Assembly (NCBI GenBank): GCA_010093705.1
Contig: MU006100.1
Location: 594,745-658,744 of the forward strand
Direction of reading: 5' to 3'
Source: Patellaria atrata CBS 101060
Taxonomy: Eukaryota
Length of the DNA stretch: 64,000 bases
The translations under genes were made by a program, and so were the position numbers. Numbering within the stretch: the first letter of the stretch is position 1; each line of letters starts with the position of its first letter. Below are positions 12,693 to 43,573 of the stretch, piece by piece. The notes under the pieces were generated by a model, which saw only the letters and a list, made by a program, of their open reading frames with translations, had not been told where the DNA came from and ran no database searches.

Positions 12693-14442
12693 ATGAAGTT
12701 TCTCGCAGTATCCGCTGCCGTTGCCGCTCTGGCCTCGGTGGCTTCGGCTAACACTCCGTTTGACGCTCACCACAAGGCTCCTACAGCTCCAATTGAGGCT
12801 CGGCAATTCCATTCCTTCCCCAAGAACTGGAGGCCGAAGTTTCCACCTCTTCCCCGCCTTCCGTGGCACAAGCGTCCTGGTCACGGCCCGAGATCTAAGC
12901 CTCTCGTGAGGTCGGTACGTTGTTTTCCAGTCTTTGAGCAGTTCATAGCACTTTGACGGGTCCGATTGACATCCAGCGTTGCTATGGACGTCCATTGATG
13001 ATTGCACTCCGTAGTTACCAACCGATTGCTGACATAATGAATAGGACAAGCTTCAATCCACCATCAAGGCTAAGAACCTGCTTGAGCATGCTGAAAACTT
13101 GCAAGCAATCGCATACGCGACGACTGCACGCAATCGCGTGTTCGGTAGTCCGGGCCACAACTTCACCGCCCTGTACATCTACGAACTCCTATCCGAGCTC
13201 GATGAGTACTACACAGTCTCATATCAGCCATTCGTAGAGCTCTGGTCCGGCGGTGGTGCTGACGTGATTGTCGAGGGCACTGAACTGACATCCGTTTCGA
13301 TGTTCACCTACTCGCCAAACGGTGAAGTAGAGGCGCCGATTGTGCAGGTTGCTAACCTTGGCTGTGAGGCGGCTGATTATCCCGCTGAGGTTGAGGGAGC
13401 TATTGCTCTCATTTCCCGTGGTACCTGTGAGTTTGGTCTCAAAACCGCGCTTGCTGGTAGTGCCGGTGCAGTTGGTGCCATTATCTACAACAACGTCGAG
13501 GGTCCAATTGCAGGTGGTACCTTGGCCACCCCTACCCGACCGGAGGGTCCCTATCCTCCCGTCGCAGGTATCAGCGGCACTGAGGGTGCTGCAATCATCG
13601 AACAACTGGCTGCAGGTCCAGTGTCCGCTATTCTCGACGTCGAGGCTCTATCAGAAAACCGTACGACCATGAACGTGATCGCCCAGACCAAGGGTGGCGA
13701 TCAAAATAACGTTATCATGGTTGGTGCTCACGCCGACTCCGTCAACGCCGGTCCCGGTATCAACGACGACGGTTCCGGTACCGTCGGTATCCTCGAAGTC
13801 GCCCTCCAACTGGCCAAGTTCAAGACCAAGAACGCCGTCCGCTTCGGTTTCTGGAGTGCCGAAGAATTCGGCCTGCTAGGATCAGAATACTACGTCTCCC
13901 AACTGTCAGAGGCGGAGAAAGACAAGATCAGACTGTATCTCAACTTCGACATGATCGCCTCACCAAACTACATCTACTCCATCTACGACGGCGACGGCGA
14001 CGCATTCAACATCACCGGTCCCCCTGGCTCCGCAGAAGCCGAGGCCCACTTCGAAGCCTTCTACGAAAGCAAGCGTCTCCCCCACCAGCCCACCGCTTTT
14101 GACGGCCGCTCCGACTACGGTCCCTTCCTCGACGCAGGCATCGCCGCCGGCGGCATCTTCACCGGTGCCGAACAGGTCAAGACTGAAGAGGAGGCGGCAC
14201 TTTACGGTGGCGAGGCAGGCGTCGCGTACGATATCAATTACCATCAAGCGGGCGATACCGTCGATAACCTCAATATGGACGCTTTCGTCACCAACACCAA
14301 GGCCATCGCCGACTCCGTTGCTTTCTACGGCAGGAGTTTCTCTAGCTTGCCGGCCAAGGCGAAGAGGGTTAAGCGCTCCGTACCGCTCGTTGTGGGAAGG
14401 CATGCTGGGTGCCACCATGAGCATGTGGATTTGGCTGTGTAA
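12693..14442 (+). CDS. Secreted M28 aminopeptidase (aminopeptidase Y-like, PA domain)
   Basis: Signal peptide. Intron 12915-13044 joins SKPLVRS|DKLQSTIK in frame. PA domain ALISRGTCEF. Metal-binding motifs GAHADSV, GINDDGSG, AEEFGLLGS, NFDM and YHQAGD. Confidence 0.93.
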
Positions 14443-20046: not shown

Positions 20047-23000
20047 TTACATCTTTAACTCCATCTCCTGCACCTTATCATGGCTTACCGGAAGATCGCT
20101 TACCGCCCCGACGGTCCTGGGAGCGATGCTTCTCAGTTGTGTCATCCCGAATCTCATCCCTCTAATCTTCTCACCCCTATTGTCTGCTCTTCTCACACGT
20201 CTCGCAGCTCCAGTCAGACAAACCATGGTCTTATATGTCGGCAGCAGAGTTCCTGGCTTGACTCGTCCTCGCGTGCAGATATGATCAAACCCTCGGAAGC
20301 CTGGTGTATCGGTATTCTTGAAGAATAGGTTACTTGAGAACGTCTGAGGTTTCCATCCTGGCCAATTTGGTATGAGATACTCTTCACACGTCCGAAAAGC
20401 AAGAATAGCATACTGTGCGCGGGCCATAGTCTGGATGTAGAAGTTCCAGATGCGGTTGTCTATTATATATCCGCGCGACATCACATCTGAAATCACTTCC
20501 CCCATCTTCGCATACTTGCGGTTTCTCGCTAGACACCTGAGGTTAATATACAACGGATACGCCAGAATCCCCGCGCGATTACGAGAAATTATGGGGTCAT
20601 GCACGTTGAGGCGGGCGGGATCTATCTTAGGGGGGTAAAGAAGACTTGGTGGAAGGGATTCCTTATGCTCGTTATCTTGACCCGTTGAGGTTATGACCTT
20701 AGTGAAAATTTTGTTGCTCGTACTCGGGACTGGCTTAGTTACAGTCGGAAGTGAATAAATACTCTGCGTCGGTAGTTGTATTAATGGCTTGTAGATAGAC
20801 GTTCCGTCCTCGGGCGCAGACATGTCTTGCATTTGAGACATATGTTCCGTTGTGGATTGTACGTCACCACTGCTAATCTCGGACATTGTGGATTTCTCGT
20901 TAACACTGTTAAGCTCGGAGGTTCGTTCATTTCGTTTCATAAGCTCGAATGTTCGTTCACTCCGTTTCAAAATGCTGAACTTGCGGGCGAAGAGTTCCGC
21001 TTCAGACAAAACCAGGTTCCATAGCTCTTCAATCTGCCGATAACGGTTCTGACGGAAATGGGATGCCATTAAAGCGGAGATAATGCGTATTGGAGGGAGA
21101 ATATCTCTATCCTGGCCCCCTTTAGCCTCCACGTAAACATCAAATAAACTCTTAACGGCGTGGTAAACATCCTTATCACTAAAAGCAGGGTTAATCCTTT
21201 CGAATACATATTCAAAATATGTGTCAGGAAAACCAATCGGGGTCATACGGCCTTGTAACCCAATACTGGGTTGCTTAGAGGCGATATCTAGATATCCTGA
21301 CGTCAAGACGCGTTTTAGACTCCTGTGCAGTACTCTCAGAGCAAAGCCTCGCCGCTGGAGGGGTTCACTGGGTTGCATTCTAAATTTTTCTTGTATACGC
21401 GCTTGCAGATATGCCATTTCTATCGCCGCGGTAGGTTGTGTTCGCGTGTATTTTTTCATGTCATGGTATACTTCAATTGCGCTGAGTGGCCGCCCTGAAC
21501 TGACAAATCCGAGAATGATTATGGTCCAGTGGAACGCAAGGATTCTGAATCTGTTCCGTCTCATTGTTTTGCGGAGAATTTTATATGCCTTTTCCACCTG
21601 TCCGAGCATGCAGAGCGCCTGGATTAATGCTGCATATGTAAATGTATCGAAGGGTACATTCGCATCTTGCATACGGCGATATACCCTCAAGAAAGATATC
21701 ATATCTCTTCGTAGAGCATATGCTGTAAGCAAGATATTCCAGGTGGTTGTAGTAGACTCCACTCGATGAGGATCCCAGTGTTCCTTTATCGCCATCATCT
21801 GCGCAGCGTCATCAGCATAAGCTTCAGCACTGACAAGATCATCCTCATTCACGTATGCTAGCACTATGCTACTCTGCATCGCAGACGTTATAGGGACTCC
21901 TTTGTTATGAGCCAAGTCGAGAAGTTCACGAACACCTTCAACGTCTCCTCTGCGAGCGCACAAGTCGAGCACCGGACCGAACGAAAATGGGTCTAGTTTG
22001 TTAGTATTCACAATCCGTTCAAACCACCTGGATGCTCCATCAATGTCATCAGCTCGGGCATAAGCGTGTAGAACAATATTCCAAGCACCCTTTTCAGGAG
22101 TTATCCCAAAATCTGTGGACATTCGTTCGAAGAATTGGACAGCATCGTCAACTCGACCAAGCCTTGCATTGGCATACAGTACAGTATGTGCGCTCACATA
22201 GTCCACTTGTGCCCCTGACTCTCTGAGCTGGTTGAAAAATTTGGTGACGCTCTCAATATCACCGGAACGAGCAAATGCTCGCATCAGAGTGTCCGTGGTA
22301 TGCTTAGGTAGAACACCGTGGAAATTGCGCCAATCTTCTAAAAGTGTTTGTACTTTAGGGCGCGACCTATTATCGATAGCAAACCGGCACGCATCCTTGA
22401 TTAGGATATGTAGAAACCAGGGAGATGGCTCGAAGGCGTCAGATGCCCGATATAGTCGGTACAACCACCGAGTCATTGCCCTTTTACTCTTCTCGTTATA
22501 ATCTTTGTCAGGTGCCGGGTTTTGCGCATAACTCATCATTGCTTCTTCATAATGACTTGCTCGAAATTGAGCTCGGTGGTTGAGAGACGACCGGGGAAGC
22601 ATGTACATGGTAAATAAGGTCTGGACACTTTTGTAATCAGCATAAGCCGCCTGTCTACAAGCGCGCATTGTAAGTTCGTGTGTGAAATGATCATAAGCTG
22701 CAATGCGGATTGGCGCCCATTGCTCAGACTGAAATGTTACGAAAGGGGCAATGTGCTTTGAATAGGAGAGAGCAAGCTCAACCACATCCGGTAACTCTCC
22801 CACCTCATTCCACAAATCAAGAAGGGCACCATATAGTTTTTCGCCCTTTTCTTCGCGCTGAAATCTCACAAATGATTCGTTAATATCTACGGCAGCTTCC
22901 CAGTTCTCTGTTTGAATCAGACGCGCGATTAACGACGATGATCCGAAGTTCCCATGAACATTTTTGGATATTGCCAATTCGTGGGCTTTTATGGCATCTT

Positions 23001-23790
23001 CGAACTCATTTTTATATATTAAAGACTTTATCGTAGCCCTATAAGTGGACGCATCTATGTCGTGGTCTTTCAGAATGTGAAATAATGCTTTTGTCCGGTG
23101 ACGGTCTATATGGCGACGGGACTGGGCCAGATATCGGAGAAGCTGTTCTTGCATTCGAGGATTCTTCTCATCTTCTCCTAGTTGGCAGTACAAGCTCCAC
23201 GCTTCGTCCTGATCTTCCTTGCCAGGCGATTGCAAGATAGCATCGAGTTCTTTCCCAGGATTTTCACTGCTAAAATTTGACTTTGAGGTATTCCAATCTT
23301 CCAATTCAGCAAGAACACGGGCATCAGAGGAAGAGGTTTCCGTGGAGAGAGGAATTTCTAAGAAGGGAGGAGTTTCTGGGGAGGAAAGGGTTTCTGAGGA
23401 AGGACGGTTTTCTGAGGAAGTTTCCGAGCACGAAGAGTACGGCCGTAGTGGAGCCAACGCTACACCATTCTTTCTCCAATGCTCCAGGTTCTTTCGAGAT
23501 ATTCGGTTTATAAATGCGATTGTCTGCAAAGGATAGAGGAAATCGAGGAAGGGAGAGTCGTAGATCCAGGAAGGGTTATTGATGGATGAATCCCGTCGTC
23601 TGGGCTGGTACTTCGGGTCGTGTTGGAGGATAGAAGCCCACCATGAAGCTGATCCTGGGAGATGAAGGTCACCTGCTCCATGATGCCAAAATGCGGAGTG
23701 CAACTTTCGACGAGCCTGGTATTGATGGCAAGACTTGCGCAGAAGGGATCGTCTACCTGAATCGAGACATGCTGAAGCTCGCTCGAACAT
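20047..23790 (-). CDS. cya5: Mitochondrial PPR protein, COX1 translational activator CYA-5/Pet309-like
   Basis: 1247-aa intronless ORF. N-terminal RRKLHSAFWHHGAGDL and FLDFLYP blocks. Multiple PPR repeats (WNIVLHAYARADDIDGA, TYAALIQALC). C-terminal WNFYIQ..AF..CE.YLIPNWPGW. Confidence 0.85.
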   Translation of the reverse strand: MFERASACLDSGRRSLLRKSCHQYQARRKLHSAFWHHGAGDLHLPGSASWWASILQHDPKYQPRRRDSSINNPSWIYDSPFLDFLYPLQTIAFINRISRKNLEHWRKNGVALAPLRPYSSCSETSSENRPSSETLSSPETPPFLEIPLSTETSSSDARVLAELEDWNTSKSNFSSENPGKELDAILQSPGKEDQDEAWSLYCQLGEDEKNPRMQEQLLRYLAQSRRHIDRHRTKALFHILKDHDIDASTYRATIKSLIYKNEFEDAIKAHELAISKNVHGNFGSSSLIARLIQTENWEAAVDINESFVRFQREEKGEKLYGALLDLWNEVGELPDVVELALSYSKHIAPFVTFQSEQWAPIRIAAYDHFTHELTMRACRQAAYADYKSVQTLFTMYMLPRSSLNHRAQFRASHYEEAMMSYAQNPAPDKDYNEKSKRAMTRWLYRLYRASDAFEPSPWFLHILIKDACRFAIDNRSRPKVQTLLEDWRNFHGVLPKHTTDTLMRAFARSGDIESVTKFFNQLRESGAQVDYVSAHTVLYANARLGRVDDAVQFFERMSTDFGITPEKGAWNIVLHAYARADDIDGASRWFERIVNTNKLDPFSFGPVLDLCARRGDVEGVRELLDLAHNKGVPITSAMQSSIVLAYVNEDDLVSAEAYADDAAQMMAIKEHWDPHRVESTTTTWNILLTAYALRRDMISFLRVYRRMQDANVPFDTFTYAALIQALCMLGQVEKAYKILRKTMRRNRFRILAFHWTIIILGFVSSGRPLSAIEVYHDMKKYTRTQPTAAIEMAYLQARIQEKFRMQPSEPLQRRGFALRVLHRSLKRVLTSGYLDIASKQPSIGLQGRMTPIGFPDTYFEYVFERINPAFSDKDVYHAVKSLFDVYVEAKGGQDRDILPPIRIISALMASHFRQNRYRQIEELWNLVLSEAELFARKFSILKRSERTFELMKRNERTSELNSVNEKSTMSEISSGDVQSTTEHMSQMQDMSAPEDGTSIYKPLIQLPTQSIYSLPTVTKPVPSTSNKIFTKVITSTGQDNEHKESLPPSLLYPPKIDPARLNVHDPIISRNRAGILAYPLYINLRCLARNRKYAKMGEVISDVMSRGYIIDNRIWNFYIQTMARAQYAILAFRTCEEYLIPNWPGWKPQTFSSNLFFKNTDTPGFRGFDHICTRGRVKPGTLLPTYKTMVCLTGAARRVRRADNRGEKIRGMRFGMTQLRSIAPRTVGAVSDLPVSHDKVQEMELKM

Positions 23791-24235
23791 GCCCCGAACT
23801 ATACACGATAGCAGATTGGGACTGCTTCACTGTAAATGGTATAAGACAAATTTCAAAAATCTTTGATCGTTGAACGCGTCAATTCATGTTAGGTAGTAAT
23901 TCTTGATTGTGGCGCAACGTGCTCCCTATGAAGTTAGGAAGCTAGATGGAAGGCAGGGTGGAACTATAGATCGCAAAGAATAGAGAAAGCATTAAAGAAA
24001 GCACAATATAGAGACGAATATGAAAGAGGGAATTTGATCGGTAGCAGGGGCGACAGAGGGTTAAATTGATGATATTTGCTCCTCACGGCAATCTCCTTTT
24101 CCAGAGCTCGTCGGCGAAATGCTCGCTACGGTGCACCACAACACCTCCATTTGTTATGTCACCCCACCACAATTACATGAGCACTGTGGTGTCTCTGGCA
24201 AATATTAAACAAATTGACATTCGAGAGATAAAGTC
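23791..24235. promoter_or_regulatory. Short bidirectional promoter region between cya5 and SRP68
   Basis: Head-to-head start codons are separated by 445 bp. No specific element was assigned. Confidence 0.5.
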
Positions 24236-26204
24236 ATGGATATCACAAGCTTCGTGACAGCTCAAAGAGACGCTGCCCTCTTGATTGGCGACTATAACAC
24301 ATACCGAGAAAAACTATCCCGCCGAATTTTGACAATCAGAAAGAGATTAGGACGGACAACTCCAAAAAGCGGAAAGTACACCACAAAAGCTCCAATAACT
24401 GCGGAGAATATCGGAAGCAATCATGAGTAATATATCATTTCTGGTAAAAGAGAGATTGATCTAACATGTACCGTACAGATACCTCCATCTGCTCCTCCTT
24501 ACTGCCGAACGAGCCTGGGCGAACGCGATGCAGATGAAATCAGCACATGCAGAAGAAAATGCAGAGAAAGGGATCACGGGGTCTACCCGCAGTCATATAA
24601 TTTCTCGTCTGAACAAAGCTGCGAGGATAGCAAAAGAGTTGGTTGTATTGCTTCAGGACAAGGGAGCATCAAGGGCGACTGATATTGATATCCTCGAAGG
24701 CCAAGCCTACGCATACTCCCTTTCCGGGTCAGAAGAGTTTGAGAAACAATCTGAGGGGGTTAGATCAAGGAATGCTCAGGTTCAAACGAAGAAGTGGGAA
24801 CCATGTCTGAAGTACTTCGCCGTCGCCCGCATCATCTATAATTCGTTACTTCTGCACACGAAAAAAGATGTTTTCAAGGAGGTAATAGTAGGGACGACTG
24901 ACCCTAGTATACGATATGGAGCCTACCAAGCACATCTTCCGCGTACCGTAGCTGTGTCCACGGTGGCTAAACAATTCTTCCCGAAAGAAAACGTCGAGTT
25001 AGTGAAAGCGGTTGAGGATTTAGATCCCTCCGCATTAAGCAGCGATAAAGAGACTACATCTACCAAGGGCACAACGGTCGAAAGCATCCCTAACACTATT
25101 ACTTGGCGTAGCCGGACCGCTAATATCGCTGATGCCGCGATCGGACAAGCTCTTGCATCTGTTGAAGTGGCAGAAGCTAAACTCTCCTCCTTCCTCACCT
25201 CGGCAGACCCTAGCACCACCTCCAAAGAAAGAGCAGCAGCATACGATGATATTCTCATCGCAAGCCAGGACGCCGCCGACGGGACGCGCCACGCAATCGA
25301 AGAGTTAGAGAAAGAAGGCATAAACGAAGGCGACCCGCGCATGCAAGACCTCCGAGTCACGAGTCTCGCAGTAAACTACGCGCAGATCAGCTGGAGAGTT
25401 GGCCGCAACCGTGTCCTCATCGGCGAAGATGATGGCGCCGACCTAAAAGGCGAAAGACCACGGAAGCCGAAGCGACCGCGCAAGGACGGAAAAGAGTGGG
25501 TAGAGAAAGAAGAAGGAAACGGACGGAAGCTAGCGAGGTTGCGGGAACGAGTCGTACTCTACGACGCCATCCTGCAGAGCATCGACTCAATCAAAGAACT
25601 CAGGGGTGCGGTGCGCGACGAAGCATTCGTGCGGGAACTCGACGGAAAGAGAGCGTATTTCCAGGCTTTGAAGTGCCTCAATATAGCTTACTCCCATGCC
25701 CTCCTCTCCTCTCCCACCAACGCCCTCGCCCTCCTCTCTCGCTCCCACACCCTCGCTACCAACGCTTCCGACCTGCTCAGATCCTCCTCGCCAGCATCAA
25801 CTTCCACCCCGCCTCGCTTAGACCTCTCCTCCACCTCCGTCTCCTCACTCCAAGACCGTCTCACCCGTCTCCTCTACCAATACCGCGGCATCGTAACCCT
25901 TTCCCTGCCCACAAAAACCACCACCACTTCCTCAACCCCTGCCGCCACGGCTCCGCTCGTCGAGAATCTCATGGCCTATCCCGAACCGGGGAAGTTGGTC
26001 GATCTGAAGAATCTGGTGCAATACCCGCCCAAGCTGCAGCCGGTGATGGTGAAGCCGCTGTTCTTCGATGTCGCGTGGAATTATATCGAGTATCCCGGAC
26101 GTTCTACGCGTGGGAAGGCGGGTGTGCAGGAGGAGAAGGAGGAGGAGAGTGAGGAGAGGAGGGAGACACCGAAGAAGAAGGGGTGGTTTGGCTTTGGAAG
26201 GTAG
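24236..26204 (+). CDS. SRP68: Signal recognition particle subunit SRP68
   Basis: MDITSFV..RDAALLIGDYNTYR. Intron 24427-24478, then YLHLLLLTAERAWANAM. Also TITWRSR, YPPKLQPVMVKPLFFDVAWNYIEYP and a KKGWFGFGR end. Confidence 0.93.
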
Positions 26205-29625: not shown

Positions 29626-31250
29626 TATAGAGGTAAAGAAAAGAAACCGTGAATTAAAAGAGGTTGATGGAAAAGACTGTTGTGATGATGGTTTGGATCC
29701 GTAATTCAATGGCAATGTCACGATTATTTCGCGGGATTTGTAAGCCAGCAAGGGGAACCGATAGCAGCTATCCGTGACTGCAATCCGAACCGAGACCGGG
29801 AGTCTTCTATAACCTCACTCTCGCTTTGTTCACACGAAATGGAAACATATAATTCTCGGCTGTTGATAAAGCATTAATTTCTGCTAAGCAGCTTGGTTCT
29901 ATATTATATGTACAAATTTCTGCTCCAGCACTCGTCAGAATTTGCTCAAGCTGTCAATCCATTATTTTACCTATTTGACGAACCTGTACCATGACTTTTA
30001 CAACTACAAGTTCTCCATTATCCCTATAAGAAAACTAGGGCGATTCAACAAATATGTCTCCTAGCTTTGTATCACGTTTCTCACTTCTCGTGCTGTAATA
30101 TTCTATACACTCTGTAGTGTATAGTCAAAGACAAATCATGGTATTTGCCAGTTCTGTACAATACAGTTAGGAGAACCTTTCCCATCACCCACTTTTCGCT
30201 TGACCTATACACTACGAAGAAGGGCGAGATATCATTCAAGAAAAGTCAAATTTACACCTCTCCAACAAAAAGTCCTAAATTCGCCTTCCCATATTATTCA
30301 AAGACTTTCGTACAGCAGTTGAGTAATATGTTACACTCAATTCCAGCTATCCAACGGTACGTCACCAAATTATGTCCATCCGTCAGAGAGAGAAATGGCA
30401 CTCCGGCAATTCTGTACGCTAGCTGTACAAACAACACATCCTCTGCAATTGCCCTGTTAATCAAGTTCCAAACAATCGATACAAATTAGTTGGAACCTTT
30501 CATTGAGCACCCGTATGCCGAATCATTTTTTGATGATGTGGCAGAGATAGGCGCGTTATATGCTTCTCTATTCCCTCCGTTTCATTTTTTCGGTGGATAA
30601 AAGGTCAGTTCACCAAAAAGAAGCCTGGTCTCATAGATGCGATCTTCTTCCAAACAGTCATGGATCCCCATTCTAGCAGGTTTTTCCTATACAATATGAG
30701 GTGCTTCGCCTTCTTGGTACAATTGTCACCAGACCTGTCATTTGCCAAAAGTCAATCCGTACATCTCCATTATATCTGTTGACGCCAAATATCACCTAGG
30801 TGCTATTGTTATTTACAATAGTACAACTCTTTGATCAAGTCATGGATATTACCCCCATTATAGTAGAATGTCTCTCACTTACTATCATCTATTTTCCACC
30901 AAACTATAAACCGTCCTCCAACCCACGATTTCTTTGTCTCTTTCTTTCTAATCATCGCAATTTTTGATCCTCCTTGCTAATAATATTATTGTCATCTTTC
31001 TCAACAATCAACACAAGGCAAGCGCCCCCCTTCTACAATTAGAACAAAGACAACCAATACACGTCTTATCACTCCCGCAATCCCACTGATTGTGTACCAT
31101 TTCCACATTACACCACATCGTCTCATCCGCCTGAGCTCACCGGTTGAGCTCGTTTCTTACAGAACATCAATCACTCCCGTCCATCCTTACACAGTACGAA
31201 CTACTCATATCCACTCCCCGAACATCATTATATCGACCCCCTACCCCAAA

Positions 31251-32344
31251 ATGCCACCCCACACTAGAGCGATGGCCGGTACCAGCGCCGATCCTGACCC
31301 ACAAAACCAACCCCACATCATGGACGAAACGAACACCCACATCCAAACCCAAGACCCTTTCCACGACCAAGATGACGAAACCCTACCCAACGAAGACCTA
31401 ACCCCCTCAATGCTCGCCGGGACCCGAACCGACGGCATCACCCCAAAAATCCAGTGCGTCCACCCCATCAATCCCTATCACCAAACCCCAACGAACTAAC
31501 GCACTGCAAATCAGGAACGTAGTAGCAACCGTCAACCTAAACTGCAGACTCGACCTCGTCCTCATCGCCCAGCAAGCCCGCAACGCAGAATACCAACCCA
31601 AGCGCTTCGCAGCAGTCATAATGCGGATCCGACAGCCGGCCACGACGGCGCTGATATTCGCGAGTGGTTAGTTGTCCCCATTCCCCACTTCCCCTCTTCT
31701 CCCGTTCTCGTCCTTTTGTCCCTAACCTTACCGTATCCCTTCTTCTTCCACATGCCCTTCCCAATCCCATATACCCCATTTTTGTCCCCCGGCATGGTCA
31801 AGCCAAACTGACACCCCCACCCCTCAATAGGCAAAATGGTCGTCACCGGCGCGAAATCCATCGCAGACTCCAAACTCGCCTCCCGCAAATTCGCCCGGAC
31901 GCTCCAGAAACTGGGCTACCGGCCCTCCTTCACCGAGTACAAAGTGCAGAACATCGTCGGCGCCGCCGACGTCCGGTTCGACGTGCGGCTCGAGGGGCTC
32001 GCGCGCGAACACGGCCAATTCGCCGGTTACGAACCCGAGCTCTTTCCGGGTCTGGTGTATCGGATGTGAGGTATTTATATATATATATTTCCTTTTCTAG
32101 ACTACCCGATCCCCCCAAACCTTGGTAAAGGCCTGTGGGGGATATGTGGGATATGTGCTAATTGTTCGATAGGATGAAGCCGAAAGTCGTCCTCTTGATT
32201 TTCGTGTCCGGGAAAGTGAACCTCACGGGCGCGAAGACGAAGGCGGAGCTCTTCCGCGCCTTTGAACTGATATACCCCGTGCTTAAGGGGTTGAGATTTA
32301 AGAGACCTGAGATTGAAAAGGCGAAGAGAAAGGGGCGGGTTTGA
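31251..32344 (+). CDS. tbp: TATA-box-binding protein family member, unusually divergent (possible TBP paralog)
   Basis: Introns 31454-31514, 31667-31830 and 32066-32172 give a complete two-repeat TBP core: QNVVATVNL...[28 protein letters not shown]...QNIVG...[32 protein letters not shown]. Confidence 0.92.
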
Positions 32345-32723: not shown

Positions 32724-32823
32724 NNNNNNNNNNNNNNNNNNNNNNNNNNNNNNNNNNNNNNNNNNNNNNNNNNNNNNNNNNNNNNNNNNNNNNNNNNNNN
32801 NNNNNNNNNNNNNNNNNNNNNNN
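32724..32823. other. Assembly gap (100 N)
   Basis: Run of N. Confidence 1.
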
Positions 32824-33502: not shown

Positions 33503-34835
33503 TTATAAGATGCCAGAATCTTTTAGAGCGTTTTGTAGGATTGTTTCCTTAACGGCGGCGAATACGAGACGGATGTTTGAAGTATCGGTAGCTTGCGTAA
33601 GACTTTACGGGGGTTTAGTGAACTATATCTCCGATGGGGTAACAACAAAACTTACTGGGGATATAGATTGAGATGCGCTCTGTTAACTTGGTTAAACCGC
33701 CAAAGTAGGTATTTGGCTGCTCGATTTACGTCGTTTCCGCCTGAATAGTCTGGGAAATAGTTCCCTAATGGTGATCTTGCTAGTTTTGCTTTGAATAGAT
33801 CGACCTTGTTCAAAAACAGAATGATACTAGTCCTCATAAACCATCGTGAATTGACAACAGAGTCGAATAATACTAGACTCTCCATCATGCGGTTCTAGGT
33901 TCTGATTAGAGGGCTGGGCGGCACGTGACGCGTGATGGGACGAATTACCTGACTACTCTCTTCCAAAAGGACCTGATCGTACTCGCTGAGTGCAACACAA
34001 AAGATGATCGATGTCACATTTTCGAAACAGTGTATCCATTTTTTCCGCTCACTTCGTTGTCCACCAACGTCGAACATACTGTGTTTGATTAGGAAAGTTG
34101 AGACGATATCATGCACCCGCAACTTACTGTATGCTTAACTGACCCATAGTGAAGCGGGTCTCGTAAATTCCCGTTGTCTTTGTTCTAGCGCGAAGTACAT
34201 CTGCTTCCTCGGGAATATATTCAGGTGCCGCAATTCGGTTGACTTCATCAAAGAAACTATAGATGAGTTAGCATCATATTAGCGTCCGCAAACATTGATG
34301 AATATTTACTATGGTGCTGAATCCATCAAGTAGAATTCGCTTGAGTGTTCCAGAACTTTGGGGACACACGAGTCGTGCCACAAAGAACTGACTGCCAATC
34401 CGACTTTAGATTCCAATGGCTTTTCCGGATCCGGATCGACGGTGTAATCCATGAGATATTCGCAGAAGGCTTCGTTGCCCTCATTTTCAGGCTCAATATC
34501 GAATTGCCGCATCGCTCCGATCAATGATTTCGCGCAATCGATGACGTTCTTGAATATTGTAAGCCGATACATGGTAAGCTCGTCCCTTGTGTAACCATTT
34601 TGATGAATGATTTTCATCTGCTTCACGATTGTGGATTTACCGCTCTCTCCGGAGCCTATAAGTCATTAGTATATGTCCAGTGATTCACTAAACCAACGGG
34701 TTGGGACGTGCCTAGTAGTAGTATCTTGCATTCTCGTCGTAATCGTCGCGAATCTTCCTCCAACTTCCTGTCGATGGCCTGGCTTCTTTTCTTTTGCTCT
34801 GCTTCATCATTGTTTGTGCTCATGCAAGCACCCAT
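33503..34835 (-). CDS. gna-3: Heterotrimeric G-protein alpha subunit, fungal class III (GNA-3/GanB/MagA type)
   Basis: MGACMS start, [10 protein letters not shown]-loop, [29 protein letters not shown] and KDSGIL* end. Multiple introns. Confidence 0.95.
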
Positions 34836-35574: not shown

Positions 35575-35674
35575 NNNNNNNNNNNNNNNNNNNNNNNNNN
35601 NNNNNNNNNNNNNNNNNNNNNNNNNNNNNNNNNNNNNNNNNNNNNNNNNNNNNNNNNNNNNNNNNNNNNNNNNN
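35575..35674. other. Assembly gap (100 N)
   Basis: Run of N. Confidence 1.
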
Positions 35675-38179: not shown

Positions 38180-38279
38180 NNNNNNNNNNNNNNNNNNNNN
38201 NNNNNNNNNNNNNNNNNNNNNNNNNNNNNNNNNNNNNNNNNNNNNNNNNNNNNNNNNNNNNNNNNNNNNNNNNNNNNNN
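38180..38279. other. Assembly gap (100 N)
   Basis: Run of N. Confidence 1.
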
Positions 38280-38637: not shown

Positions 38638-40161
<1,524 letters not shown>

Positions 40162-40753: not shown

Positions 40754-43573
40754 ATGGCATCCCAACACCCCTTCCAGCCGATCGTCTGCATTGTCGATTT
40801 CCACCACGCACGGTTCGTATCTCGCACTGGATTGTATGCGAAGTCTCGCTAATGAGGAGAGTGTACAGGGGACCTGAGGTTGAAAAATGGCTGGGTGTTT
40901 CAGATGAAGAGGATCCGGCGGAGGAGAATGACTGGTCCTTGTTACCGTTTATGGCGTTGAGCGATGGTGCGCACGCGTACGTCCCATAACCTCCCTCCGC
41001 AATCCTCCTATCGACCCGCTGTGCTATACTGAACACCCGACTGAATATACCGTATGCATACTGTAGCTCGGTAGAAGATTTCTCCTACTTCACCCTTCGC
41101 CGCGAAGCCACAGCGGAGCATCCCGCGGCAAGCCTCTTTGGTATATCGTGTACGAGACAACTGGATGCGAATGAGTTGATCAACCGCCCAAAGGAGGTTA
41201 CGAGGAGTACGGTACAGAAGGCCGTCGTGGTGATTTGTGATCGCCCACAGTGTTTTGGGAATTTGAGGGAGAGGTTGAGTATTGTGGTGAATGCTTGGTT
41301 TGCTCAGAGGGACTTTACGGATTTGGATATATTACAAAGGTTTCAGGAAAGTTTGGATAAGAGCTTTAAGGCCCAGGAGGAGGAGAGGGATCAGTATTTT
41401 GGTGAGTCCGGTCTTGTTGGATGGGGGGTCCCGGGGGGTTGCTGACATTCTGCTAGGCCTCTCGTTGAGGGAATTGATACATGAATTTAAGTATCAGACT
41501 TTGGTTCTTTTTAAGTGTTGTTTATTACAACCTAAGGTATGCTGCTCACTGCTCAGGGTATGTTCTGTATCCACACTCACTTCTCCAGATGCTGTTTTTC
41601 GGTTCGCATTGCGAACGAATATGCATGTTACAATTTTCTTTGATATCTTTGATACCCGGATTGATTCGCAATCTTAAAGATTGTGCTGATCCAACGTTTA
41701 ATTCTTATGAAAAATTTTTGGTTATGCCTACGTCTTTGAAAACGAGTGAACGACCATCTTGTAAGTATTCCTCTCAACCTGCTGTCGATAGTGCTAATGA
41801 GGTTAGTACTTGCATATATGGGATTACCTCTGCAACTATTCGGAACAGTAAGTTTGTTCGCGTCTCTAAAGGATACTTATTCACATATAGCATAGGGAAG
41901 TTTGTTCGGGCCATATACTCCCTTACAACAGCTTGATCTACTCGCCGATCATGGAACGAAATCTTATATAGTTGGATCCACGAATTCTCTTCTGCTACAA
42001 CAAAAGGATAGATATAGTGACATTCTAATCAATGTAGGATACCATTTTCCATTCTCTCTATTTCATTTTGTTGTGTACTTCTGGTAGGAGTGCTCTCAGT
42101 CTCTTTTCCCCTGTGGTGCAATCCTTACCTACTGTACGCTTGCTCTCAAGATGGTCCCAACTCAGTGTATAAAAGCGTGTCAAAAGGACGAACGATGGCT
42201 AAAGCGTGGTGTACGACCTGAATTTTACAGACAACGGTGATTGATTAACACGGCAGAATTAGCTCTCTCCCTGCTGTTGTCCGGCGAGCATACAAGGGTC
42301 TGGGGAGGTCATATGCACCCTTCACCGACCATGATGTGATGATGTCTTAATGTAGTCATGCTTATTCCTCACATCACTGACGCATCTTGTGGATAGCTTG
42401 ACGAAGACACGATCAATATCACTTCTCCTTCCCTTCGCGCTGCCTTGACGCTATCTACTCCCGATCGACGGTGGATTGACTTTCTCACACAAACAGTTAA
42501 TGATACTTGGGATGAATGTACGAGTTGATCCCTTCACTCAACGAGCTATCTCTAAACAATCTGCAGCAAATCCAAGTCGACCAAAAACCATGGGTTATGC
42601 TGGTAGCGAAGAGTTCATCCGGCTTCAGTTCGAAGAATACATTCTTGCGCTACTTGCAGCTGTCAAGTACAAACAGCATACAGGTCATAAAGATGACTCT
42701 CAGTGGGGTGGGTGATGAGACCGTTCGATTTCAATGGTCTGCTTGTTCTCGTCACAGTCAAGCTAATTCTCAACAGGAGAGGATCCATCCAGCGAGTTCA
42801 ATCCGGAGTTCATAGATGCGTGGATGAAAACAGACAATTTTAGGGTTTTCAACAAATATACTTGTAGGGCAATCGCTGTCTTCCGGTAACAGTGTAGATT
42901 CTGATCACTGCCTAGATTCCGATCTTTTTGATGTGGTCCAGCCACTCCATCCATGCAGCGGCGGGCTCTCTATTGAAGATGTCCAACGGCGTGTTGCACA
43001 GTGAGTATATGGATGAATCCTACTTCTTGCGGAACTAATGTTTTTATCCTTAGACAAATTAACGATCTTCATCTCGATGAACGCTTTCAGGCATCCCGTG
43101 AAACTATAGGAAAACACCTGGCTACTGGTCAGCAGAAAGTTTCAACAGTATTCAATAACTTGTGGCAAGACATTGAAGCTATGCGTGAGGCGCAAAAAAG
43201 GAAACATGAAGAACAGAAAGCGGCCCAGATAGCGGCCAATGCTTCAGGTCCATCATCACCGACCGAAAAGTCTCCCACCTCCAGATGTAAGTCGATCTAT
43301 CAAGCTTATCACTGCCAATTAAGATCTGGATGTGGTGGACCTACATTGCATGTCTATACTGATACTCTCGTAGTCGCCAAAGCGCCTGATTTCTCACAAG
43401 CGCAAGCATCAGTACAGGCTGCTGGTTCTCGCGCAGGTGCATATCTTTCATCGTGGGGTACGTGGGCGGCGGAGAAAAGAAAAACGGGATGGGGGAGAGG
43501 CTCGACGCCGGCTTCACCAACGACGGAGGAACCGAAGTTTGGGAGTCTGGGGAAGGAGGGTGGTGGGAAGTGA
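40754..43573 (+). CDS. AVL9: Late secretory pathway protein Avl9 (DENN-like)
   Basis: VDFHHARGPEVE, LPFMALSDGAH, LFGISCTRQ, VTRSTVQKAVVVI, FGPYTPLQQLD, GSEEFIRLQFEEY and HPCSGGLSIEDVQRR, spread over many introns. Confidence 0.92.

Follow-up and report, generated by a model that had tools for sequence, protein, structure and literature searches.

A strongly divergent TBP gene of Patellaria atrata, a candidate fungal TBP-related factor

The window analysed here is a stretch of 64,000 nucleotides from the wood fungus Patellaria atrata CBS 101060 (contig MU006100.1, positions 594,745 to 658,744 of the forward strand). At 31251-32344 of this window, on the forward strand, lies an intact four-exon gene whose spliced open reading frame (ORF) encodes 253 amino acids and a full two-repeat core of the TATA-binding protein (TBP). 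By profile, by fold and by its key residues, the encoded protein belongs to the TBP family. It is not the canonical Pezizomycotina orthologue, from which it departs in core invariance, in the N-terminal motif and in single-copy status alike. It is probably a lineage-specific paralogue, a fungal "TBP-related factor" (TRF) of P. atrata that coexists with a canonical TBP encoded elsewhere in the genome. What appears to be new in it is an asparagine in place of yeast V213, a set of non-conservative changes on the convex surface, helices and loops, a replaced N-terminal region and a basic tail.

The TBP core and its divergence

The translations of the three core exons match the Pfam family PF00352 with 70.1, 75.2 and 41.4 bits (cut-off 22.9), and between them cover both repeats. 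An AlphaFold2 model was made of P0001, a partial NCBI protein model of 187 amino acids from Patellaria atrata CBS 101060 that is identical to the core and C-terminal part of the window gene, and this structure was used for a Foldseek search. The element order S1-H1-S2-S3-S4-S5-H2 is present twice in the model, i.e. it has the saddle fold, and the top 37 ranks of the search are all eukaryotic TBPs, with E-values down to about 3e-24 and TM scores of 0.62-0.71. Residues 173-187, which form the tail, have a pLDDT below 50.

The residues on which DNA binding depends are mostly preserved. Yeast residue numbers are used throughout, calculated as the index of the aligned chain plus 60, which we take to be the correct offset. 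The roles of the kinking phenylalanine pairs and of the minor-groove asparagines and threonines are known from crystal structures. Both phenylalanine pairs (F99, F116, F190 and F207) are kept in the window protein, as are N69, N159, T124 and T215, and the C-terminal stirrup YEPELFPGL is identical, including E186, E188 and L189, which contact TFIIB. An earlier note on this DNA, made from its letters and a list of its ORFs, had described the four phenylalanines, both asparagines and the YEPE stirrup as retained, and the alignments confirm this. Structural Gly, Pro and Phe positions are intact in the alignment with canonical TBPs, and the helix-2 lysines K133, K138 and K145 are present; together with the N-terminal stirrup, the helix-2 lysines serve TFIIA.

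Among the four DNA-facing valines, V71, V122 and V161 are kept and V213 is replaced by asparagine in the motif GKVNLTG. At the centre of the TATA element, these valines pack on the minor-groove edges of the base pairs, and they select against G:C there. The replacement had been noticed before, and it is highly unusual: at the V213 equivalent of 246 C-lobe motif matches in 357 proteins, valine occurs 239 times, isoleucine four times, cysteine and glycine once each, and asparagine once, in the window protein itself.

Over the core, identity is 67-72% to 26 fungal TBPs ranging from Dothideomycetes through Basidiomycota, and 70% to yeast 1ytb_A, which agrees with the by-eye estimate of about 70% for Spt15 in the earlier note. 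The highest identity among the best 120 of 7246 hits (8000 candidates scored) is 74%. The note's remark that canonical cores are far more conserved than this holds as well, given that 140 of 171 core positions do not vary among the 26 fungal TBPs, and that the window protein changes 27 of those 140. At 36 core positions it carries a residue found in none of the 26. In a core-only tree, its end branch measures 1.37 substitutions per site, compared with a canonical median of 0.017, and in a tree that includes N-termini and other divergent proteins the corresponding values are 4.84 and 0.21.

The novel residues are distributed unevenly over the secondary structure of the model, with 11 of 64 strand positions, 15 of 49 helix positions and 10 of 58 coil positions affected. 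Ten of the 11 strand changes are conservative (five of I to V, and others of F to Y, S or C to A, and S to G), the exception being the V213 to Asn change in S5'. Non-conservative changes are found in helix 1 of repeat 1 (K83V, T84L, L87Q, H88Q), at the start of helix 2 (E129I, D130A), in the N-terminal stirrup and its adjoining loop (N95Q, E108Q, K110A), in the S1'-H1' loop and helix 1' (P169D, S177R, R178E), and in helix 2' (E221A, Q225R). All of the altered helix-surface motifs quoted in the earlier note, such as LDLVLIAQQ for LDLKTVALH, are present. The convex surface of TBP is used by Mot1, NC2, TAF1-TAND2 and Brf1.

The two termini differ from those of canonical TBPs as well. The Pezizomycotina N-terminal motif (…THPS.A.QAK.F.APGSLSFP…), seen in 25 of the 26 canonical rows (all except the Mycena row), was not found in exon 1, for which a BLASTP comparison with P0150 gave a best E-value of 0.26. 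At the other end, 24 of the 26 canonical TBPs stop at ...DFRK plus zero to two residues, and P0126 and P0137 have different tails of their own; the window protein continues into the 14-residue basic extension that had already been described.

The gene model from which these comparisons derive is consistent with an intact TBP reading frame, and the earlier claim of an intact, spliced gene with a full TBP core is upheld by the four exons, the PF00352 matches and the alignment. All three introns have GT..AG ends and a branch-site-like CTAAC, CTGAC or CTAAT (Table 1), and splicing them gives the exact canonical spacing, with a gapless TBP alignment over residues 2-172 of the 187-residue model. In exon 3, to which P0001 is 100% identical, 53 of 77 residues are identical to yeast TBP chains, as counted from the alignment. 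Exon 1 is predicted. Position 31251 is the first ATG of a stop-to-stop frame at 30984-31499, and M1, M8 and M24 are all candidate start codons. The prediction is supported by its junction, GITPKIQ/NVVATV, because it mirrors the canonical GI(V/T)PTLQ/NIVATV (a slash outside brackets marks a splice site here and below). P0001 begins inside the intron-1 acceptor, without exon 1.

A canonical TBP in the same reads, and the age of the split

The question of a second TBP was tested through sequencing reads, and not through the P. atrata assembly. Two runs (X1 and X2), both labelled as probably DNA, contain 0.98 of the sampled words of the window gene, introns included. The reference used was L005, a metatranscriptome cDNA of a canonical TBP that is full-length and of the Dothideomycete type; it was picked because, among 18 canonical cores, its mean nucleotide identity to the rest was highest (0.824). 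In each run, one contig (2201 and 2232 nt, at depths of 312 and 400) aligns to L005:1025-1439, over 415 nt with 69 differences, 83% identity and no gaps. Thirty-four of the 40 differences listed (24 more lie beyond those) are at third codon positions. The changed codons that could be classified also number 34; 32 of them are synonymous, and the other two replace residues at the SRHHM spot, which is variable among canonical TBPs. The aligned block starts at NPK/RF and ends just after IYPVLS, both of which are canonical intron sites, and the loose ends of the contig, AT-rich by our own count, resemble an acceptor and a GTAATT donor.

This sequence is not that of the window gene. The best matches of the window to the L005 coding sequence reach 75%, 66% and 69% and lie only in the exons of the divergent gene, and introns 2 and 3 of that gene break a stretch that is continuous in the canonical contig. 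Given the high-depth canonical contig and the lack of any such sequence in the window, the window gene would therefore be a paralogue, and a canonical TBP very probably coexists elsewhere in the P. atrata genome. The earlier proposal of a second TBP rather than a sole one is thus supported, indirectly, by a canonical-type exon in the same reads. The P. atrata canonical TBP is not among the best 120 of 7246 protein hits, because canonical cores are too alike for the ranking to bring it to the surface.

The base composition of the two genes probably differs as well. Relative to L005, the canonical contig has 33 GC-to-AT and 13 AT-to-GC changes, which points to a GC content at third codon positions (GC3) lower than that of L005 and near the range of the neighbouring window ORFs (0.43-0.71). 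The window gene has a GC3 of 0.73 (C3 0.46), which exceeds the value of each of the ten neighbouring ORFs checked and, judging from the net GC-to-AT changes, probably also the GC3 of the canonical TBP exon of the organism. In run X2 there are further contigs, at depths of 2.8 and 4.7, on L005:1045-1227 and 1298-1436; they are 88-90% like L005 and are best regarded as the trace of a second fungus with another canonical TBP.

The time since the two genes separated can be judged from synonymous sites. There are 21 usable sites at which the P. atrata canonical sequence differs from L005 and the paralogue encodes the same amino acid; the paralogue has the base of the resident canonical gene at five, that of L005 at seven and neither at nine. 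Its third-position identity to L005 is 41 of 97. Synonymous sites are therefore saturated and the split is old. In the compared block, 102 of 139 residues (73%) are kept despite this saturation. The paralogue was compared with 36 canonical cores that are in frame (L071, a 37th locus, was set aside because its frame was wrong). In these comparisons dN is 0.24-0.28; dS reaches 1.5 or more in 11 of them, and saturation prevents its calculation in the remaining 25. Where it could be computed, omega is 0.08-0.16. The dN/dS comparison suggested in the earlier note thus yields a ratio not near 1, alongside an intact frame and mostly conservative changes in the DNA-facing sheet. The paralogue appears to be old and under purifying selection, with an omega of about 0.1.

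The introns give a mixed picture of the origin of the gene. Intron 1 has the same place and phase as in canonical ascomycete genes (L049, L052, L056, L057, L060, L061, L064, L065 and L026). The sites of introns 2 (ASG/KM) and 3 (YRM/MK) are found in no canonical gene examined, the nearest to intron 3 being that of L051, four codons later, and the window gene has neither of the canonical introns between which the canonical exon of P. atrata lies. The introns have turned over, and intron 1 alone is shared. The earlier note had taken the introns to argue against a retrocopy. For intron 1 the argument stands; it is weakened by the novelty of introns 2 and 3 and by the two that are missing, and the gene might conceivably be a partly processed copy that gained introns later. 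A search for introner-like repeats found no further copy of any of the three introns within the window. Repeat-induced point mutation (RIP) was considered as a cause of the divergence and rejected, as the TpA/ApT index of 0.71 is not RIP-like and the (CpA+TpG)/(ApC+GpT) index of 0.96 is borderline, so that there is no clear signal.

Phylogeny with fungal TBPs, which had also been proposed, was informative in part. The window protein falls among fungal TBPs with respect to a nematode TBP, and the best tree puts it on the Pezizomycotina side with a support of only 36, its placement being loose because of the long branch. Exon-sized matches at 78-84% identity (P0277, P0299, P0303 and P0304) were examined as possible orthologues and rejected, since they are fragments of canonical TBPs.

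Proposed role and alternative explanations

The favoured course of events would begin with an old derivation from a fungal TBP, followed by evolution some 80 times faster than that of canonical cores, under purifying selection. Most likely, the window protein still binds and bends TATA-like DNA, and most likely it can recruit TFIIB or a Brf-type factor, as the residues for both are retained. From the changed surfaces, its preference for bases in the 5' half-site of TATA would be relaxed or shifted, and its sensitivity to TFIIA, Mot1, NC2, TAF1-TAND and Brf1 would be altered. Such a protein might nucleate initiation, or compete with TBP, at a subset of promoters, and it is in this sense that we infer, with the earlier note, a "specialised" second TBP.

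A bolder version of this reading is possible but doubtful. It would make the window protein the first fungal TBP-related factor with a promoter code of its own, in which Asn213 makes a G:C pair in the 5' half-site of TATA acceptable to, or preferred by, the C-terminal lobe, and in which the rebuilt convex surfaces and the new termini release the protein from Mot1, NC2 and TAF1. The protein would then drive a dedicated set of genes, e.g. for apothecium or ascospore development, in parallel with the canonical TBP, and fungi would have re-invented the role of the animal TRFs independently.

Several observations weigh against the view of the window gene as a functional paralogue beside a canonical TBP. 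The canonical contig is known only through a heterologous reference, L005, and its codon reading covers 40 of 64 differences; a contaminant at a depth of 312-400 is nevertheless unlikely. There is no RNA run among the listed runs that contain the window gene. The NCBI model is partial, with exon 1 missing, and the confidence of the structural model is moderate (pLDDT 75.2, pTM 0.60). The omega values are averages over the entire path to the canonical genes and so are compatible with a recent relaxation of selection. No orthologue was found: full-length proteins (best 120 of 7246) reach at most 74% identity and the 80 metagenome loci retained from 508 relatives at most 73%, which makes the gene an orphan among the sequences searched. 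Finally, the roles of V213, helix 2 and the stirrups are carried over from work on yeast, plant and human TBPs.

The alternative that survives best, although an unlikely one, accepts a functional protein and makes it a decoy or repressor, which would occupy TATA-like DNA or titrate TFIIB without a full pre-initiation complex, its TFIIA, TAF and Mot1 surfaces having changed. In support of this, the DNA-contact and TFIIB-stirrup residues are kept, non-conservative changes affect helices 1 and 2', the beginning of helix 2 and the N-terminal stirrup, and the Pezizomycotina N-terminal motif is lost. However, K133, K138 and K145, which genetics ties to TFIIA, have all been kept.

It is also quite unlikely that the gene is a silent or decaying duplicate, its frame intact by chance or its selection relaxed only recently. 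The orphan status, the lack of a listed RNA run and the partial NCBI model would fit with such a copy, as would the radical change of the DNA surface at V213. Yet a neutral copy would not have reached synonymous saturation with its frame still open, all three splice junctions working and 102 of 139 residues kept. An omega of 0.08-0.16 with the structural Gly, Pro and Phe positions intact likewise speaks against decay, as do a GC3 at the top of the local range and the lack of a clear RIP signature.

Acquisition from an unsampled fungal lineage, in place of a duplication within the lineage, is improbable; it concerns the origin of the gene and not its function, and the tree cannot decide it. In its favour, the canonical gene of the organism is not favoured at synonymous sites (a match at 5 of 21), some states (HG.F, DVRF) are typical of TBPs from outside the Pezizomycotina, the GC3 exceeds that of the neighbours, and the tree placement is weak. 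Against this, RMMKPK and AFELIYPVL are common to the window protein and Pezizomycotina TBPs, the best tree, for what its support of 36 is worth, has it on the Pezizomycotina side, the matches listed include no donor-like sequence above 74%, and an old duplication within the lineage accounts for the same facts.

The view that the window gene is the sole, fast-evolving TBP orthologue, with the canonical contig stemming from another organism in the culture or library, is most improbable: the trace contigs in run X2 do indicate low-level foreign fungal DNA, and the second TBP was sought in reads and not in the whole genome, but the canonical contig is about 100 times deeper than those traces, its base changes point to a GC3 near that of the neighbouring ORFs and its loose ends are AT-rich, and a sole TBP altered at 27 of 140 positions that are invariant across Ascomycota and Basidiomycota would still have to serve all three polymerases.

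Comparison with known TBP paralogues and genomic neighbourhood

TBP is among the most conserved of eukaryotic proteins. Specialised paralogues of it are treated as an animal innovation, and plants have near-identical duplicates. If a filamentous ascomycete has an old TBP duplicate under constraint, then fungi, too, experiment with the basal machinery. Because the residues for kinking and for TFIIB binding are kept while a base-discriminating residue and the regulator surfaces are changed, the window protein would also be a naturally occurring variant with which to study how the specificity for TATA is determined and how TBP is recognised by its regulators.

Compared with canonical fungal TBP (Spt15; 1YTB, 7O4I chain O and Chaetomium 7Z7N), the window protein has the same fold and an indel-free core at 67-74% identity, and shares the phenylalanine pairs, N69, N159, T124, T215, the stirrup and the site of intron 1. 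It differs in the 27 changes at 140 invariant positions, in Asn213, in the loss of the N-terminal motif and in the basic tail of 14 residues, and the gene differs in having two new introns, in missing two canonical ones and in the presence of a canonical copy beside it.

The metazoan TRFs (insect TRF1, TRF2/TBPL1 and TRF3/TBPL2) are likewise TBP duplicates that exist beside TBP and have diverged surfaces. The kinking phenylalanines are kept by TRF3 and TRF1, as they are by the window protein, and not by TRF2. In core identity, the window protein (about 72%) is intermediate between TRF3 (about 90%) and TRF2 (about 40%). It is nearest to fungal TBPs, which argues for an independent fungal origin, and orthology to the metazoan TRF clades is not expected. 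By analogy, it may work most like an animal TRF of the phenylalanine-keeping kind. In PMC7221094, TBPL1 is described as having a tryptophan at one of the phenylalanine positions. Animals, unlike yeast, have evolved multiple non-redundant paralogues, according to a preprint (bioRxiv 10.1101/2025.10.03.680374). A limited collection of literature, available in part, yielded no description of fungal TBP paralogues. The window protein would then be an independently arisen TBP paralogue in a kingdom in which none has been studied, known so far from one species.

The earlier statement that ascomycetes usually have one TBP needs softening, as divergent TBP-like proteins are present in several other Pezizomycotina, namely a Sordariales trio, Colletotrichum sublineola and Vermiconidia calcicola. 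The trio consists of P0051 (Echria macrotheca), P0088 (Podospora conica) and P0111 (Immersiella caudata), which are 64-67% identical to each other and 52-60% identical to canonical TBP, form a starred clade of their own without the window protein, and appear to be uncharacterised. The window protein is less close to this trio (52-59%) than to canonical TBP (72%). Its identity to the other divergent fungal TBP-like proteins overall is 52-62%, again compared with 72% to canonical TBP, and the window protein and these proteins therefore have separate origins.

In P0065 (Vermiconidia calcicola), P0044 and P0076, a glutamine is found at yeast V122 (GKMQVLG), the N-lobe position symmetric to V213. 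A glutamine at V122 in these and an asparagine at V213 in the window protein show that DNA-facing valines have been swapped for polar residues more than once among divergent paralogues, a hint of a route that fungi have taken repeatedly. P0096 (Colletotrichum sublineola), named "Brf1-Tbp-Dna ternary complex", is a divergent TBP of 194 amino acids, 66% identical to canonical TBP and with a C-terminal tail of its own.

Haloarchaea and other archaea have several TBP paralogues per genome, which are thought to partition promoters. These differ in belonging to another domain of life, in having other partners (TFB) and in descending from unrelated duplications.

The neighbours of the gene in the window (13045-46444) are ordinary housekeeping genes (Table 1), and no transposon domain was detected in the 20 neighbouring ORFs scanned. 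The first of three scaffold gaps begins 380 bp past the stop codon, which leaves the 3' flank incomplete.

Table 1. Features of the divergent TBP gene and of its surroundings, in window coordinates
Feature	Position	Strand	Description
Exon 1	31251..31453	+	N-terminal region; 67 codons and 2 nt; ends ...DGITPKIQ; predicted
Intron 1	31454..31514	+	61 nt; GTGCGT...ACTAAC...CAG; phase 2, within the Gln codon just 5' of N-V-V-A-T-V
Exon 2	31515..31666	+	Repeat 1, S1 to S4; PF00352 E 1.5e-19
Intron 2	31667..31830	+	164 nt; GTTAGT...CTGAC...ATAG; between ASG and KMVV
Exon 3	31831..32065	+	End of repeat 1, linker, repeat 2 S1' to S3'; PF00352 E 3.6e-21
Intron 3	32066..32172	+	107 nt; GTGAGG...CTAAT...ATAG; inside the second Met codon of YRMMKPK
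Exon 4	32173..32344	+	Repeat 2 S4' to H2', tail, TGA stop; PF00352 E 1.3e-10
Asn codon AAC	32219..32221	+	Position of yeast V213; DNA-facing strand S5' (model E145-151); motif GKVNLTG
Basic C-terminal extension	32300..32341	+	14 aa; past the end of 24 of 26 aligned canonical TBPs
M28 peptidase	13045-14439	+	
PPR protein	20050-23826	-	
SRP68	24465-26201	+	
G-alpha exon	34312-34662	-	
Protein kinase exon	39297-39818	+	
Avl9	40990-41933	+	
100-N scaffold gaps	32724-32823, 35575-35674, 38180-38279		Downstream of the gene

A few unusual protein models were also encountered among the matches to the 187-residue query. P0121 (Oryza punctata, 321 aa) and P0122 (Linum tenue, 305 aa) score 362-364 bits, where single TBPs score about 275, and probably hold more than one TBP core per model. 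P0018 (Boothiomyces, 523 aa) combines a TBP domain with tubulin-tyrosine-ligase domains and is likely to be a fused gene model.

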